Part shown: positions 4,012-51,987 of the stretch, piece by piece
Layout of the letters: every line of letters begins with the position of its first letter
Numbering within the stretch: position 1 is the first letter of the stretch
Assembly (NCBI GenBank): GCA_963720715.1
Contig: CAVRGM010000003.1
Coordinates: 45,427 to 109,426 of the forward strand
Origin: an uncultured Chloroflexia bacterium
GTDB taxonomy: Bacteria; Chloroflexota; Limnocylindria; Limnocylindrales; CSP1-4
Reading direction: 5' to 3'
Length of the DNA stretch: 64,000 nucleotides
Notes under the pieces: generated by a model
What the model saw: the letters and a program-made list of their open reading frames with translations, nothing else
Told to the model about the DNA's origin: nothing
Database searches by the model: none
Position numbers and translations under genes: made by a program

Positions 4012-4643
4012 GCCGCCTCGGTCCGTCCACCGCGGTGGCTGGCCAAGACATCGCCGGTACGAGACGGGTCCGGCCCCCAGGGAACGTCCCGCACCGCCCC
4101 GAAACCCGGGCGATGGTCGCCAGGCGAGCGCTTGTCACCACAGGACCGGCGAATGCTTCACCAGACGGTCGATCTGGCGATGACCCGACCGGCCATCGGG
4201 TCGAGAACCGGCAGATGCTCACCATACGGGCATCCGGCATGCAGGACGCTGTCAGGCGCTCGCCAGACGGGCATGTGTCATGGGACGGTGGGGCCGCCAC
4301 GCTCAGGCTTCGCATGATCGACGGCGTAACCGACTCCACGATCGCGACGTGCGCTCGCCTGACGGGCATCTGACACGAACCGTGGTGCCGCGGGACCCGT
4401 GGGACGGCGGACCGGGGCGGGGCCGATGCCTGGGCGGTTGCAACCTCTTGCACGGACCCCCGCCATCGAGTACGGTTTCCGGGAACGAAAGGAGGTGATG
4501 TGCAGTGATCGACAGTATGCCTAGCTGCACCACCTCGCAGGAGATGGCCGTTTAGTCGGACACCCTGTGGGTGGTACGCAACTCGGACGCCGGCCCACGA
4601 TCGGGCCGGCGTTCGTGCGCCCAGCCCGTGAAGGAGCCGTCTC

Positions 4644-6271: not shown

Positions 6272-7510
6272 TCAGGCAGGCTCCGGCGAAGCGAGCTCGA
6301 GGGGCAGACTGACAGCGGCCGTTGGCGCGGGGTCGAGCACACTCACACGCGCATACAGGATCACGCCGACGGCGGTGCACCCGGCACACAGCAGGAGGCC
6401 GCTGGTCACGTTCACGATGCCGAGCTGGAGCAGCACGCTCATCGCGAAGGCGGCGACGATGCCGCGCGCACCCGTGACGGCGTTCCAGCCGGCCATCGCC
6501 GCCGCACGTCCCTCGATCGTCGTGTGGTCGCTGACCGCGGCGGCGATCCCGACGTCGATGGAGGCGCTGCCCGCTCCGGCGCCGATCGCGGCGATCCACA
6601 GGATCCGGACATCCGGCGCGAGCGCATAGGCGATCAGGGCGATAAGCCCGAACGCGCTGCCGATCCGCATCGCGACCAGCGGCCCGCGGCGGTCCGCGAC
6701 TGCCCCCCAGACCAGGAAGAACAAGGTCGTCGCACCGGCCGTCAGGATGCCGATGACGCCGACGTCCGAGAGCGACAGGTCGAGCCGATCGACATTGACG
6801 ATGGCGTATAGGGGCACGGCCGCGATCAGCCCGCCGCCATAGAAGCCCTGCGCGAGGGCGATGCGACCGAGGATCGGGCGTTCCCGAAGCGTGCGGATCG
6901 AGTCCCGAGCGGAAAATGTCGGTTGGCGTGGGGCGGTCGGGGCACGCAATCCGAGGTAGGCGGATGCGCACACCAGACCGAACAGACCGGCCATCGCGAC
7001 CGCCACCAGGCCACCGAAGTGGTCGGCAGCGACGCCTCCGACCAGTGCCGCGACGGCCGCGGCAGCCGCTCGGGCCGATCCGACCACGCCGACCAGTCGC
7101 CCGCGGATCCGTGCCGGATACATCGACCCCCACAGCCCCAGGTAGTACGGGCTCGAAAGCGAGAGGCTGAGCCAGAACGCGAAGGTCGCCGCGATGAGGA
7201 TCGGCGGGATCGAGAACACGACGAGCAACAGGAGGGACCCGGCTCCGGCCGCCCGGATCAGGCCGAGCTGGCGAGCGGATCGGGGACCTACCCGACCCGC
7301 GAAGGCGCCAAGAAGGTTGGCCACGAACGGTGCGGCCGCCAGGGCGGCCAATCCGATGGGTTCCAGTCCGCCACGCCGGGCGATGGTCGGCAGCAGCGTC
7401 GTGATCAGCGCGGCGGTGACGCCGACGCCGACGGCGGCGATCAGGTCGAAGCCCAGGTTTCGCCAGACAGCGCGCTGTTGCACGGACGGATGGCGTGACG
7501 GCCGGAACAC
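6272..7510 (-). CDS. MFS transporter
   Basis: Minus-strand ORF 6272..7684 with about 12 predicted hydrophobic helices and Gly/Ala-rich TM segments. The N-terminal ~60 codons of the ORF look non-coding (Arg/Ser rich), so the start is placed near 7510 (uncertain). Confidence 0.55.
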   Translation of the reverse strand: MFRPSRHPSVQQRAVWRNLGFDLIAAVGVGVTAALITTLLPTIARRGGLEPIGLAALAAAPFVANLLGAFAGRVGPRSARQLGLIRAAGAGSLLLLVVFSIPPILIAATFAFWLSLSLSSPYYLGLWGSMYPARIRGRLVGVVGSARAAAAAVAALVGGVAADHFGGLVAVAMAGLFGLVCASAYLGLRAPTAPRQPTFSARDSIRTLRERPILGRIALAQGFYGGGLIAAVPLYAIVNVDRLDLSLSDVGVIGILTAGATTLFFLVWGAVADRRGPLVAMRIGSAFGLIALIAYALAPDVRILWIAAIGAGAGSASIDVGIAAAVSDHTTIEGRAAAMAGWNAVTGARGIVAAFAMSVLLQLGIVNVTSGLLLCAGCTAVGVILYARVSVLDPAPTAAVSLPLELASPEPA

Positions 7511-7726
7511 GACGTACCTCGAAGCAGCCCGTCCGGCCTGCGAGGTGAGCTGTCGGGCTCGGCGGTGGGATCGCCGTCGCGTCTTCGCGATTCGCCCCGA
7601 AGGATCTGGGTCCCCCGTCCTCCACGAGGAGGTTCGGCCACGGATAACGGTAGCAGTCTTGTCGTTCGTCGTCCGCTGACCCATTCGTCCGGCCTGAGAC
7701 AGGCGACCTTCGGCGCAAAGCGTGGT

Positions 7727-7760: not shown

Positions 7761-8135
7761 GGGGATGTGTGGTTTCGACAGGGCCTGGCTACCGGGGAAC
7801 GCGAGCCGAGGACGCCACTGGGCCTCGTTAATCACGTGGCAAAAAGAAGTACCTGGCAACCGCCAGTCGACTCTCGCCCTCGCTGCTTAGGCAGTAAGGT
7901 GAGCGTGGAAGCTGCCTCCGCCTCGCGGGTAGTGGAAGCGTCATGCAGCGAGGCTGCGATCCGGATGAGTGACGCGTAGTCCGGAGTCAAGCCCGATCTA
8001 GGGACACGTGACTGGACCGCCCGGCAGGGTGCCGATGTTCGTTCGGGCGGTCGACGACAAACCATCGGACACGCTCGTAGTGGTTTCCGGCGAAGGGTTC
8101 TGGACGGGGAGTTCGACTCTCCCCCATCTCCACCA
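7761..8135 (+). ncRNA. ssrA: tmRNA (SsrA), encoded CCA
   Basis: The 5' end 'GGGGATGTGTGGTTTCGACAGGG' matches the conserved tmRNA 5' acceptor/TLD. The 3' end 'GGACGGGGAGTTCGACTCTCCCCCATCTCCACCA' is the T-arm plus acceptor stem pairing with the 5' GGGGATG. An internal reading frame ends '…AAC CGC CAG TCG ACT CTC GCC CTC GCT GCT TAG' (…NRQSTLALAA-stop) at 7855-7890, the hallmark ALAA degradation-tag ending. Confidence 0.85.
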
Positions 8136-47399: not shown

Positions 47400-49046
47400 A
47401 TGAACCAAGGCTCGAGGCTGGTGCTGCTCGCCGTCATCGGGCTTGGGGTGTTCCTCGCCGGGCTCGAGCTCATGGTCACGGCGGTGGCCCTGCCTTCGAT
47501 CCTGGCCGATCTGGCCGATCCAAGCGGTGGCAGCGCCTGGGTCGAGTTGCGCAAGGCCAGCTGGATCATCAACGGCTACCTCCTGGTCTACATCCTGACC
47601 ATGCCGATGGCCGGGCGGCTGGCCGACCTGTGGGGTGCCCGACGTCTGTTCATGGGTGCCCTGGTCGTGTTCACCGTGGGGTCGGCCCTGGCCGGTGCGT
47701 CGCAGACGCTCGACCAGCTCATCGCCGCCAGGGTCGTCCAGGCCGTCGGCGGCGGCGTGCTGGTGCCGGTCGGGACTGCCGTCGCGGCGGCGCTCTTCGG
47801 CGGCTCATCGCGGCCGCGGGCCCTGGGAGTGGTCGGGGCACTCACCTTCCTGGGGATGGCCGCGGGTCCGGTCGTGGGCGCCGCCATCCTCGCCACGGTC
47901 CACCCCGAAGGCGCGATCCTCGCGGCCGACCTGACCGGGACGTTCGCGGCCGATTTGCTGGCACCGGCCTGGCGCTGGGTCTTCTACCTCAACATCCCGA
48001 TCGGGATCATCGCGCTGACCCTGGCCTGGGCCGCCCCGACCGACTGGGCGATGCCCAGACGTGACGGGCGAGTGGATCTTGTCGGCGCGCTCCTCTTCGG
48101 GCTCGCCCTGGTCGCCGGACTCATCGGCCTGACCCTCCTCGGCTCGAGCGACATCGCCGGTACGGAGATCCCGGCGACGGCCGTCACGATCGTCCTGTTC
48201 GCTGTCGCGGCGCTGGCCACGATCGTGGCCGTCGTGCGTGGCCTGCGCGTCAGCGACCCGTTCCTCGATCCGCGACTGTTCAAGAGTGTGTCGTTCAGTT
48301 CGTCTGCGCTCGTCTCGTTGCTGACCGGCTATGCGTTTGCGACCGCGATCATCGGTGGCGCGGTGTTCGTCGACCGTGTCCTGTACGGCGGCCCGGATCA
48401 GCAGCGACTGGCGCTCGGTTCGCTGGCCGGCGCGACCGCGGTCGGGGCCCTGGCGTCCGGCTTCCTCGTCCGGGTCATCCCGCTCCGGGTCGTGGCGGTC
48501 GGCGGGATCGCCCTGAGCGTCGGCGGCCTCCTGGCGATGTCGACATGGACACCCGAGACCAGCCTGCAGACGGTCGCCATCGCGCTCGGCGTGTTCGGGT
48601 TCGGTTTCGGCTTGACGGTCACGCCGCGATCCACGGCAGCGGTCGAGGCGGCCGGTCGACGCGCCTTCGGCACGGCCTCTGCGGTGGTGACGGTGGCGCG
48701 GATGCTCGGCATGGCGGTCGGTCTTGCCATCCTTACGGCGTATGGGTCGACAACGATCGATCGCCTCTACGACGAGGTCTATGCATCGGCTGATGCGTAC
48801 CTCCAGTACATCCCGGAAGCGCTGCGTGATCGTCCCTTGCGCGATCCGTTGGTGGTCGGCGCGCTCGAGGGATGGGCATCGCGTGAGGCCGCCTCGATCA
48901 TGGTCGGGCTGTTCGTCGCGGCCGCCGGGGTGACGGCGGTGGCCGTCATCCCCAGCCTCGCCCTGGGTGGGACCGGGGCCGCGCGACGGACGCGTATGCT
49001 GGACCTCGATGGCCTCGACACCGCCGAACCCGGGCTCACGCTCTGA
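47400..49046 (+). CDS. MFS transporter, DHA2 (14-TMS) drug:H+ antiporter-like
   Basis: The start is at 'MNQGSRLVLLAVIGLGVFLAGLELMVTAVALPSI'. The MFS motif A is 'GRLADLWGARRL', and there are 14 hydrophobic segments. Confidence 0.75.
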   Translation: MNQGSRLVLLAVIGLGVFLAGLELMVTAVALPSILADLADPSGGSAWVELRKASWIINGYLLVYILTMPMAGRLADLWGARRLFMGALVVFTVGSALAGASQTLDQLIAARVVQAVGGGVLVPVGTAVAAALFGGSSRPRALGVVGALTFLGMAAGPVVGAAILATVHPEGAILAADLTGTFAADLLAPAWRWVFYLNIPIGIIALTLAWAAPTDWAMPRRDGRVDLVGALLFGLALVAGLIGLTLLGSSDIAGTEIPATAVTIVLFAVAALATIVAVVRGLRVSDPFLDPRLFKSVSFSSSALVSLLTGYAFATAIIGGAVFVDRVLYGGPDQQRLALGSLAGATAVGALASGFLVRVIPLRVVAVGGIALSVGGLLAMSTWTPETSLQTVAIALGVFGFGFGLTVTPRSTAAVEAAGRRAFGTASAVVTVARMLGMAVGLAILTAYGSTTIDRLYDEVYASADAYLQYIPEALRDRPLRDPLVVGALEGWASREAASIMVGLFVAAAGVTAVAVIPSLALGGTGAARRTRMLDLDGLDTAEPGLTL

Positions 49047-49047
49047 A

Positions 49048-50085
49048 GTGGATGCCTCGATCCCGCTCGACGCGCGAGTCCGGAGAACGGGGGCGATCGC
49101 TGCGGTCGGGCAGCCGGGCAGCGTTCGGGTCACGGCCATGGATGGCGACACGGCCCGGGATCTCGAGGTCGCTACCGCGCTCAGGGAGCTGCCGGACCTG
49201 TTGCGCCGGCAGGATGCCGCGATCTGGATCGACCTGACCGCTCCGTCGCCTGCCCAGGTCAAGCAGGTCGGGGAGATCCTGGGTCTGCACCCGCTCATCG
49301 TCGAGGACATCCGCGAGGGCAACCAGCGCGCCAAGATCGAGTCGACCGACGGTCTCGTCCACGTCGTCCTGTTCCACCTCACCTACGGCGATGACGTCGT
49401 CGCCTCCGAGCTGGACATCGTCCTCGGCCCGGGCTACCTGCTGACCGTCCACAACGTGGACTGGGATCCGCGATCCGGACACCATCTCGCATCGGGTGTC
49501 GGCCCGGTCCTCCGCCACGGCCCGGATCACCTGCTGTGGGCCATCGCGGACGATCTCGTCGATGGCTACTTCCCGTTCACCGACCGGATCGGCGATGCCA
49601 TCGATGACGTCCAGGACGACGTCGTCAGGGCGGCGACCCCGGACACCCTCGAGCGGCTGTTCAAGCTGAAGCGCGAACTGATCGCCGTACGCCGGGCGAT
49701 CAGTCCCGTCCGCGAGGTCTTCAACCAGCTGACCAACCGCGACGAGACGTTGATCGACGCCGATGAGCTGGTCTACTTCCGGGACATCTATGACCATGTC
49801 ATCCGGCTGACCGACGAGCTCGACAACTACCGGGAGTTGGCATCGGCGACGCTGGACGTCTACCTGACCCAGGTCAATAACAACCTGTCGGTCATCATGA
49901 AACGGTTGACCGGAGTCACGGTCATCCTGGCCGGGATCGCGGCGGTCGCCGGGATCTTCGGGATGAGCGAGGCCGGGGTCGCGTTGCGGGGTGGCGAGGG
50001 CGGCGGTTTCTGGGTGGTCACGGGGTTCGTCGTCGTCCTGGCCGTCATCGCCGCTGCCGTGCTGCGCAAGATCGACTGGATCTGA
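49048..50085 (+). CDS. corA: CorA-like (MIT family) divalent cation transporter
   Basis: A cytoplasmic alpha/beta domain and two C-terminal TMs with 'TVILAGIAAVAGIFGMSEAG', a variant of the Y/FGMN motif. Start at GTG 49048 or ATG 49138. Confidence 0.75.
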   Translation: MDASIPLDARVRRTGAIAAVGQPGSVRVTAMDGDTARDLEVATALRELPDLLRRQDAAIWIDLTAPSPAQVKQVGEILGLHPLIVEDIREGNQRAKIESTDGLVHVVLFHLTYGDDVVASELDIVLGPGYLLTVHNVDWDPRSGHHLASGVGPVLRHGPDHLLWAIADDLVDGYFPFTDRIGDAIDDVQDDVVRAATPDTLERLFKLKRELIAVRRAISPVREVFNQLTNRDETLIDADELVYFRDIYDHVIRLTDELDNYRELASATLDVYLTQVNNNLSVIMKRLTGVTVILAGIAAVAGIFGMSEAGVALRGGEGGGFWVVTGFVVVLAVIAAAVLRKIDWI

Positions 50086-50105
50086 CCATGGCAGTGTGGG
50101 AACTG

Positions 50106-50120
50106 CCCGCGGTGCGCGGG
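50106..50120 (+). terminator. GC hairpin (CCCGCG-gtg-CGCGGG) 20 nt downstream of corA stop
   Basis: A perfect 6-bp stem with a 3-nt loop. There is no U-tract (common in high-GC genomes). Weak evidence. Confidence 0.25.
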
Positions 50121-50130
50121 TGAGACCCGC

Positions 50131-50640
50131 GGCGGCCAACCTGGCGCGGCAACCTGGCGCGCGTGACGTGGCGCGGCAACCTGGCGCGTGCCGAAACGTG
50201 GCGCGGCAACCTGGCGCGTGCCGCAACCTGGCGCGTGCCGCAACCTGGCGCGTGTGTAGGACGCGGGTCTGGCACGAACACGCCTGGTGATGGCCGAGTA
50301 TCGACAATATCGGCACAAAGTCGACGTCGATCACGCCTGTTCATCCCGAACGCGCGTCTATGACACGCGGCCACGGACACGCGGCCGCCACGGTCACCGG
50401 CGCGTGGGACGTGGCGCGGCAACCTGGGACGTGGCGCGGCAACCTGGCGCGTGCCGCAACCTGGCGCGTGTGTAGGACGCGGGTCTGGCACGAACACGCC
50501 TGGTGATGGCCGAGTATCGACAATATCGGCACAAAGTCGACGTCGATCACGCCTGTTCATCCCGAACGCGCGTCTATGACACGCGGCCACGGACACGCGG
50601 CCGGCCACGGTCACCGACCGGCCACGGTCACCGGCCGGCC
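50131..50640. repeat. complex non-coding repeat: ~216-bp unit tandemly duplicated (≈50199-50414 and ≈50415-50630) containing internal 16-17-bp sub-repeats GCGGCAACCTGGCGCG(TGCC) (≥7 copies) and CCACGGTCACCG(G/A)CCGG (3 copies)
   Basis: A direct read shows identical ~165-bp cores ('tgtgtaggacgcgggtctggcacgaacacgcctggtgatggccgagtatcgacaatatcggcacaaagtcgacgtcgatcacgcctgttcatcccgaacgcgcgtctatgacacgcggccacggacacgcggccg') at 50253-50387 and 50469-50603. Each is preceded by tandem GCAACCTGGCGCG units. The region lies between the convergent corA and otsB-like genes. Confidence 0.75.
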
Positions 50641-50654
50641 ACGTCGAGTCCTCG

Positions 50655-51530
50655 TCAGCTCCCGACGTCTTGTTCGAGGGCACGGGCCAGCGCGGACAGG
50701 GCCTGGGCCGCATCCCATGGCGCCGCGAGGACCAGGTCGGACGCGGCCCGGACCTCGTCGGTCATCCCGTGCGGCCCGACGACCCCCACGGCGAGGCCCT
50801 GCACGCGACCCGCTTCCCGTGCGGCCCGCAACACGCCGAACCCGTCCGCGTCGCTCGAGTCGTCGCCGAAGGCGACCGCCACGGTCGGTGCGAACTCATG
50901 AAGCAGGTCCTCGAATGTCTCGCGTTTGCCGTCGGCGTCGCGGGGCCGGAGGTCGACCACGAGTCGACCGCGATAGTGAGCCAGGTCATGCGCCGGGATG
51001 TCGCGGCCGACGGTCACGATGGCCGCTTCGACCGCGGCTCGAGCGGCCACGCGGTCATCGGCCTGCCGAACGTGGAATGCGACGGACGGACCCTTGCGCT
51101 CCACGAACAGCCAGGCTGGCGCGCCGAGGACATCTGGCACTCTCGACGCCAGCAGCTCGGCCGCGCTCGCCGACCCCTCATACCCAGCCTGGTATTCGGT
51201 CGTGATCCGGGCCGGATCGCCGCCCCGCGGGAACGAGCCGCGCTGCAGGCCATGGTCGCCCAGGTACACGACGCCACCGACCCGGACCCGCGCCGCCACG
51301 TCGGCCACCGTCCGGCCGGTCAGGATCGCGACGGTCGCCCGCCCGGGACGCTGGATGCCGGCCCGCACCAGTCGCCGCAGGGCACGCTGCGCCAGAGGCA
51401 CGATCCGGGCCGCCGCCGGGTCGCGTGAGCCTTCGGCCAGGGTGCCGTCGAAGTCGGCCACGACCAGGAGTCGACCGCCGATCGCGGCGAGCTCCGCGAT
51501 CGCGTTGCTCAAGACGTGACGTCGACCCAC
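50655..51530 (-). CDS. otsB: trehalose-6-phosphate phosphatase-like HAD-IIB hydrolase
   Basis: 'LLVVADFDGTLA' (HAD motif I), 'VAILTGR' (motif II), and the C-terminal 'AFGDDSSDADGF' (motif IV). The start is uncertain (ORF open to 51587; a GTG near 51530 avoids overlap). Confidence 0.65.
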   Translation of the reverse strand: MGRRHVLSNAIAELAAIGGRLLVVADFDGTLAEGSRDPAAARIVPLAQRALRRLVRAGIQRPGRATVAILTGRTVADVAARVRVGGVVYLGDHGLQRGSFPRGGDPARITTEYQAGYEGSASAAELLASRVPDVLGAPAWLFVERKGPSVAFHVRQADDRVAARAAVEAAIVTVGRDIPAHDLAHYRGRLVVDLRPRDADGKRETFEDLLHEFAPTVAVAFGDDSSDADGFGVLRAAREAGRVQGLAVGVVGPHGMTDEVRAASDLVLAAPWDAAQALSALARALEQDVGS

Positions 51531-51558
51531 GGGAGGGTCGAGCGCATTCCCTCGGCGA

Positions 51559-51987
51559 TCACGTCCGGACCGATCCGCCGAGCGCACCGCGCCGGACGAT
51601 CTCGTCGACGCCGATCCAGCCGTTGCGTGCGGTCAGGTCGATCGTCCTCGGGAACGCTGCGTCCGCGGCGCTCGGGCTCGCGCTCGGGCTCACGACAATG
51701 CTCGCGCTCGCGCTGGGGCTGGGGCTCACGACAACGCTCGGCCCGGGGCTGGGGCTCACGACAACGCTCGGACTGGGGCTGGCGGCGGGGCTGGCTTCGG
51801 TCGACGGGCTCGGCGCGATCGACGCGCTGGGCGACGGCGACGAGCTGGGGGTGGCGGTCGGCGCGGTGGGTTGGGCCGACGGCAAGACCGCATCGTCGGG
51901 GGTGAGGGCGTAGATCCCGCCCAGCAAAAGCGCGGCCACGGCGATCCCGGCGACGAGACCGATGACGATAGAAAGGCGGGCCATCAT
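51559..51987 (-). CDS. hypothetical membrane-anchored Ser/Pro-rich repeat protein
   Basis: An N-terminal TM 'LSIVIGLVAGIAVAALLLGGIYAL', then 'SPSVVVSPSPGPSVVVSPSPSASASIVVSPSA' encoded by ~30-nt tandem DNA repeats (51690-51790). Low-complexity coding status is uncertain. Confidence 0.35.
   Translation of the reverse strand: MMARLSIVIGLVAGIAVAALLLGGIYALTPDDAVLPSAQPTAPTATPSSSPSPSASIAPSPSTEASPAASPSPSVVVSPSPGPSVVVSPSPSASASIVVSPSASPSAADAAFPRTIDLTARNGWIGVDEIVRRGALGGSVRT

Follow-up and report, generated by a model that had tools for sequence, protein, structure and literature searches.

What kind of feature is the long repetitive spacer between corA and an otsB-like gene in this uncultured Chloroflexia bacterium, and does it serve a function? 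The two genes are convergent (tail-to-tail) and the spacer between them extends over 569 nt, at 50086-50654 of the window, by which we mean the whole stretch of 64,000 nt that was analysed. The orientations of both genes and the Pfam matches of their products (Table 1) agree with the placement in the original prediction, which had been made from the letters alone. The 358-aa form of the corA product corresponds to the public predicted protein P0241, and the otsB product is 100% identical to P0121 (291 aa). The answer that we favour, with a probability of roughly 55%, is that the spacer is a lineage-specific non-coding expansion, built up through slippage during replication and through unequal recombination, and that it most likely lacks a dedicated function.

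The unit of about 216 bp, originally read as present twice in tandem, was recovered by TRF at 50196-50616 as 2.0 copies of a 216-nt period, with 97% matches, 1% indels and a score of 794. A repeat search matched 168 nt of the two copies (50220-50387 and 50436-50603, 99% identical), and BLASTN a core of 134 nt which is 100% identical between 50254-50387 and 50470-50603. Each core is preceded by an array of short head-to-tail sub-units ending in TGGCGCG (the A array) and followed by an array of a second short unit (the B array). The corresponding short-period rows of TRF have periods of 13, 17, 20 and 30 nt at 50132-50254 and 50405-50470, and a period of 17 nt at 50584-50643. The number of upstream sub-units, given in the original prediction as two to four per copy, needs revision, as TGGCGCG occurs eight times in array 1, counted from 50131, and four times in array 2. 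The A arrays of the two units hold variants private to each copy and the B arrays differ in length: the 17-nt B unit GGCCACGGTCACCGGCC is found once after core copy 1 and about three times after copy 2, the B array of unit 1 being largely missing where this unit meets unit 2. In the 64-kb window the upstream unit GGCGCGGCAACCTGGCGCG has eight matches with up to three mismatches, all of them at this locus, against 0.2 expected (0/100 shuffles), while the downstream unit GGCCACGGTCACCGGCC has three, against 0.14 expected, and is likewise confined to the locus. Ahead of the first array two small stem-loops, GGCAGT-N6-ACTGCC (50090-50107) and CGCGGGT-GAG-ACCCGCG (50115-50131), occupy a stretch that for most of its length has no counterpart in L001, the closest relative (see below).

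Table 1. Features of the corA-otsB spacer and of the two genes bordering it (positions in the window).
Feature	Position	Strand	Basis or remark
corA, Mg2+ transporter, CorA family; upstream convergent gene	49009-50085 (ORF 48967-50085)	+	Pfam CorA 3.6e-49; stop codon 50083-50085
Two small GC-rich stem-loops right after the corA stop	50090-50131	+	No T-run behind either; both paired in the spacer folds
A array 1: eight head-to-tail sub-units ending TGGCGCG (GCAACCTGGCGCG, TGCCGCAACCTGGCGCG, xxACGTGGCGCG)	50131-50253	+	Periods 13, 14 and 17 nt
Core copy 1, 134 nt; AT-richer apex inside an inverted repeat	50254-50387		BLASTN, inverted-repeat search
B array 1, truncated: GACACGCGGCC twice, then one GCCACGGTCACCGGC unit	50362-50403	+	Repeat and motif positions
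Duplication junction: B-type (..GTCACCGGC) into A-type (GCGTGGGACGTGGCGCGG); GGC/GGCGCG microhomology	50399-50408		Read directly, against 50156-50176 and 50609-50640
A array 2: four TGGCGCG sub-units, including two 20-nt variants (GCAACCTGGGACGTGGCGCG) missing from array 1	50405-50469	+	TRF, motif positions
Unit 2 as a whole: imperfect palindrome of about 240 nt (A array and left arm against right arm and B array)	50405-50654		Arm alignment, folds
Core copy 2, 100% identical to copy 1	50470-50603		BLASTN
B array 2, full: GACACGCGGCC twice, then 17-nt GGCCACGGTCACCG(A/G)CC units, ending GCCACGTC	50578-50645	+	TRF, motif positions
otsB-like trehalose-phosphatase; downstream convergent gene	50655-51530 (ORF 50655-51587)	-	Pfam Trehalose_PPase 6.3e-20; stop codon 50655-50657

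A point absent from the original prediction is that the B unit, read in reverse complement, approximates the A unit. Each repeats with a period of 17 nt, the two arrays are about 70-75% reverse-complementary, and GGCAACC is the reverse complement of GGTCACC except for two transitions. As the core contains an imperfect inverted repeat of its own (38 nt, 50249-50286 and 50332-50369, 71% complementary), unit 2 constitutes one imperfect palindrome of about 240 nt, which ends 9 nt from the otsB stop codon. The AT-richer segment at 50300-50329, first described as palindromic, is not a palindrome itself and represents the apex of this far longer one. When the left half of unit 2 was aligned with the reverse complement of its right half, about 100 nt were aligned with a local score of 33, compared to 17.9 +/- 3.1 in dinucleotide shuffles, none of 500 shuffles reaching that score. 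The inverted ends of the unit are GACGTGGC at 50408 and its counterpart GCCACGTC at 50638-50645, with which B array 2 terminates. Folding of a single unit, proposed at the outset as a check, gave for unit 2 a single long hairpin, with z = -3.9 as minus-strand RNA, -3.0 as plus-strand RNA and -2.8 as DNA; the fold of unit 1 is less exceptional (z = -1.6). The whole spacer, folded as minus-strand RNA, has z = -4.3, and none of 100 shuffles was as stable.

The region was predicted to be non-coding, and its composition agrees with this. GC content at codon positions 1, 2 and 3 of the spacer remains flat (0.67-0.73) whichever of the six frames is read, while the flanking genes have a GC3 of 0.83-0.88 and a GC2 of 0.42-0.54 in a genome of about 68% GC. 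An ORF of 222 aa on the minus strand (50045-50713) spans the entire repeat region, extends into the 3' end of corA as well as that of otsB, and exists as the public predicted protein P0242. Searches of 5.8 billion clustered proteins and of 1.84 billion representatives returned no match other than the ORF itself. On account of the flat codon-position GC and the lack of homologues in these collections the ORF was rejected as a real gene, and P0242 is almost certainly a spurious gene call.

Ten predicted proteins encoded between about 44 and 58 kb were scanned. They are a response regulator, an amino-acid permease, an MFS transporter, CorA, OtsB, three complex I or antiporter-type subunits and two proteins without a Pfam match, of which one is the remnant of a redoxin and the other a conserved protein of 241 aa; no transposase, integrase or cas protein is found among them. 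In the relatives a HisKA sensor kinase is also present upstream. The conclusion that the repeats are not a CRISPR array stands, since the units measure only 13-20 nt and are contiguous, without spacers, in a housekeeping neighbourhood with no cas protein; CRISPR arrays consist of 23-55 nt repeats with unique spacers of similar length and usually accompany cas genes. A replication origin or a dif/terminus site was also rejected, as there is no GC-skew switch near 50 kb.

Some features of the surroundings deserve mention in their own right. The redoxin gene beside otsB, upstream of it (51559-51987, minus strand), is a 142-aa remnant of a membrane-anchored AhpC-TSA/redoxin protein which in relatives has 216-220 aa (L002, 3932-4594). 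The N-terminal anchor (MMARLSIVIGLV..) is kept, the thioredoxin core including the CxxC motif is deleted, and the S/P-rich linker is expanded by tandem repeats of 30/36 nt at 51668-51834. It is a second instance of repeat expansion and decay, less than 1 kb from the repeat spacer. The window's only Rfam matches at gathering score are a c-di-AMP (ydaO/yuaA) riboswitch (7520-7649, minus strand, 70 bits) and the tmRNA gene which it adjoins (7761-8135, plus strand, 118 bits). Finally, a 25-nt inverted repeat (4113-4137 and 4250-4274, 76% complementary, 112 nt between the arms) sits in a stretch of about 630 nt for which a crude gene caller made no gene call.

Comparison with relatives showed the spacer to be exceptional. 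In fourteen relatives with convergent corA and otsB genes (CorA 63-82% identical) the gap ranges from -68 to 258 nt, the two genes overlapping in four of them. By BLASTN and a shuffle test none of these spacers has significant similarity to the unit of the window, the best against the core being that of L003 (3/300 shuffles). A MAFFT alignment suggested short words common to the core and the spacers of relatives, but homology of the core to these spacers was not significant and was rejected. Nor is the folding of the relatives' spacers unusual. Being tiny, dissimilar and unstructured, these spacers identify the long spacer of the window as derived and dispensable. Three of the relatives have moderately long spacers of 172-258 nt (L127, 5078-5249; L129, 3216-3473; L141, 5102-5289), which are unrelated to one another and to that of the window and not unusually structured. 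The corA-otsB spacer seems to gain and lose sequence repeatedly within the order.

Only one relative is close, namely L001, a contig from a JGI soil metagenome (3300081966), in which CorA is 93% identical and the upstream gene order is the same. A homologous array of short repeats starts there 6 nt past the corA stop, with the unit GCGCGGCGGCCATCC..GGCGCG (GCGGCGGCCATCC..) and a higher-order period of 43 nt. The L001 unit differs little from GCGGCGGCCAACCTGGCGCG, the first unit of the array in the window. Clusters of TGGCGCG were found in the window and in L001 only, out of 1.43 Mb of fetched loci. This distribution and the homology of the units indicate that the A array is a resident, fast-evolving feature older than the split between the two lineages. 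The L001 array on its own folds worse than its shuffles (z = +2.2 to +3.2). The L001 contig, a short-read assembly, ends inside its own array 159 nt past corA (7078-7236), where a 38-aa 'gene' has been called; the array probably caused this break.

These observations can be arranged as follows. The ancestral corA-otsB spacer was tiny, as it is in the relatives, and the lineages of the window and of L001 have in common a short-repeat array just behind corA, which has diverged between them in unit sequence and period in the manner of a minisatellite. In the window the A array lies to the left of the 134-nt core and a mirror-image array of 17-nt units to its right, giving the quasi-palindrome of about 240 nt. 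About 216 nt, comprising part of A, the core and the start of B, occur twice, and the identity of the cores points to a very recent duplication. Slipped or unequal exchange between GC-rich short repeats, misaligned at the GGC/GGCGCG microhomology between B and A, would give the junction at 50399-50408. The mirror symmetry of A and B would most simply have arisen, or be maintained, by intrastrand template switching (quasi-palindrome correction), which would explain both the common 17-nt period and the partial reverse complementarity of the arrays. Template-switch mutation of quasi-palindromes is described in E. coli and phage systems; the present case resembles these in its long imperfect inverted repeat with mirrored changes in the arms. 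Of the candidates named in the original prediction, a recent tandem duplication is consequently the one favoured, given the identical cores, the junction within GC-rich short repeats and the repeat hotspot held in common with the 93% relative L001. The feature is probably a local, fast-evolving minisatellite and quasi-palindrome which has undergone a very recent tandem duplication and is neutral.

Among known systems, VNTR loci or minisatellites such as the mycobacterial MIRU-VNTR are similar in having short intergenic non-coding units arranged head to tail at one locus and changing through slippage or unequal recombination. The tandem arrangement of short units at a single locus is found here, as is variation of the unit among close genomes, the window and L001 differing in both unit and period. 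MIRU units measure 40-100 nt; the present ones are shorter and irregular (13-20 nt), and they form two distinct arrays in mirror orientation around a unique core, on which a 216-nt duplication is superimposed. The REP/BIME and ERIC/IRU elements of Enterobacteria are similar in being non-coding and palindromic, in their convergent-gene and probably transcribed 3' position and in their potential to form hairpins at mRNA 3' ends; a REP-like trait is the GTAG at the start of each core (50256 and 50472). REPs are 20-40 nt long and ERIC elements about 127 nt, and genomes carry either kind dispersed in tens to hundreds of copies. Here the palindrome measures about 240 nt, and the searches described below revealed no further locus; the short units repeat directly, palindromy appearing only at the scale of the whole unit and not in a short unit of REP size.

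It is less easy for the slippage reading to account for the 134-nt core, whose origin it leaves unexplained, since nothing similar to the core was detected in the relatives' spacers. The palindrome with its inverted termini and mirror-image sub-terminal repeats also has the look of a non-autonomous transposon. According to this alternative, which we regard as unlikely, the locus carries one full and one truncated adjacent copy of a MITE-like palindromic element moved in trans by a transposase encoded elsewhere, and possibly derived from a transposon whose ends bear several sub-terminal transposase-binding repeats. The anatomy agrees with that of MITEs such as Correia/NEMIS and RUP in size (100-600 nt), in the inverted termini, in the lack of an ORF and in the position within a spacer that is empty in relatives: unit 2 is small, non-coding and bounded by terminal inverted repeats, and the nearly empty spacer of the relatives makes it look like an insertion. 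Mirror-image 17-nt arrays on both sides of the core recall the multiple sub-terminal binding repeats of Tn7- or Mu-like ends, and fully identical cores are expected of recently active copies. Unlike in MITEs, no target-site duplication was detected, the flanks being GCGCGTGG and GAGTCCTC for unit 2 and GCGCGCGT and GAGTCCTC for the composite of both units, and there is no cognate transposase among the ten proteins scanned. Copy 1 is without a right terminus, which fits the junction of a tandem duplication. The L001 array, with its drifted unit and period at the same position, fits evolution in place better than independent insertion; the array adjacent to the core pre-dates the split from L001.

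Dispersal is the other property expected of such an element, and the original prediction had proposed a BLASTN search for it. There is no second copy of the core within the 64-kb window, and BLASTN of the 204 loci fetched (1.43 Mb) yielded no further copy. A covariance model of the core hairpin (R1) searched against 505 kb of Limnocylindrales loci returned only hits of the locus to itself, the best other hit having E = 0.22. The 22-mer of the core apex, TATCGACAATATCGGCACAAAG, has no exact match in the GTDB species representatives, the JGI metagenomes or IMG/VR, and an A-array 30-mer has none in the IMG/VR viral contigs. Sensitive BLASTN found no match in a phage collection and three chance-level hits in a plasmid collection (E = 0.5, about 20% query coverage), and an origin from a phage or plasmid was rejected. 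A scan of the JGI metagenomes with a degenerate A-unit pattern was uninformative, as it gave single chance matches among the matches listed and did not recover L001. Nothing relevant on a comparable element was found in the literature. The repeat is locus-restricted as far as this can be tested in the window, related loci and public collections. Thus the proposal of a REP- or MITE-like element holds for the anatomy, namely the long imperfect palindrome, the inverted termini and the lack of coding capacity; dispersal was not found in the sequences that could be searched, and there is no target-site duplication. The sequence is new, in that no relatives of it were found, and the kind of feature is familiar.

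A functional structured RNA, either a terminator or stabiliser in the 3' UTR of otsB or corA or a small RNA from the minus strand, appears distinctly unlikely. The position beyond the 3' ends of a convergent gene pair is one at which terminators and REP-like stabilisers act, and the RNA folds of unit 2 and of the whole spacer given above are unusually stable. The only ground for such an RNA is this fold stability, which is explained by the palindrome at the DNA level, evident from the arm alignment and the DNA fold. Transitions compatible with G.U pairing among the arm mismatches number five for the minus strand and two for the plus strand in a hand count; this difference is not significant, so that the palindrome is not assignable to one transcribed strand. 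The repeat region has no match in Rfam 15 at gathering score, and the two hits obtained at E up to 10 are at chance level (14.8 and 10 bits against gathering scores of 42.7 and 82), which led us to reject a known RNA family. Between 49900 and 50800 neither strand has a terminator-like site, an intrinsic terminator being a GC-rich stem-loop followed by a T/U run and the hairpins here having no U-tract; promoter-like sites were not found in the region. No homologues were found from which covariation evidence could come, and in the relatives an unstructured gap of -68 to 258 nt suffices. The small non-coding RNA among the original candidates therefore finds no positive support. The only likely consequence for the cell would be that the untranslated 3' ends of the corA and otsB transcripts run into very stable hairpins, which by analogy with REP/BIME could block read-through or 3' exonucleases; such an effect would be incidental and not selected. 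With no U-tract terminator, no promoter-like site and relatives that do without it, the element is probably neutral.

A wider claim, joining the two alternatives above, is that the palindrome of about 240 nt is the first copy seen of a new family in Limnocylindria-type Chloroflexota, either of non-autonomous mobile elements or of structured 3'-end RNAs. The mirror-image 17-nt sub-terminal arrays would then offer multiple putative binding sites to a transposase or an RNA-binding protein encoded elsewhere, and the tandem pair would reflect recent activity and not slippage. We give this claim as little credence as the structured RNA.

The two-copy state might also be an artefact of assembly or polishing in a long-read metagenome, the true genome having a single unit, and we consider this very unlikely. 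The flanking proteins assign the window to an uncultured lineage of Chloroflexota; the relatives are named 'Candidatus Limnocylindrales' or 'uncultured Chloroflexia' in their sources, and many are MFD MAGs from the Nanopore-based Microflora Danica study (PMC12313526). As the source contig, on which P0121, P0241 and P0242 are encoded, measures 791 kb (791,225 bp) and its closest database relatives are of this Nanopore-based kind, the source assembly is probably a long-read one. Suspicion is also raised by the complete identity of the cores and by the break of the sister organism's short-read contig at its array. An assembler stutter would not create the private variants of the A arrays or B arrays of unequal length, and the neighbouring nuoM ORF is intact and free of frameshifts, as are the other long ORFs examined.

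An iteron- or centromere-like array of protein-binding sites is highly improbable, for although twelve TGGCGCG direct repeats and mirror-image repeats beyond an AT-richer centre would suit it, and GGCGCGTGCC, read directly, is a near-palindromic 10-mer, the repeats are irregularly spaced (13, 14, 17 and 20 nt) and out of helical phase, the neighbourhood is one of housekeeping genes without partition or replication genes, the unit sequence drifts fast between sister lineages and the element is missing from all other relatives.

The biological weight of a neutral spacer expansion is small, and the locus adds another case of a dispensable spacer enlarged by short GC-rich repeats and quasi-palindromes. 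From the practical point of view the 222-aa prediction P0242, called in a repeat region without a genuine ORF, should not be trusted, and arrays of this type break short-read assemblies, as in the L001 contig. For strain typing in this uncultured lineage the locus would serve well as a VNTR marker. Should the source genome contain more copies, these would establish a new family of MITE-like elements in a soil phylum that has been little studied.
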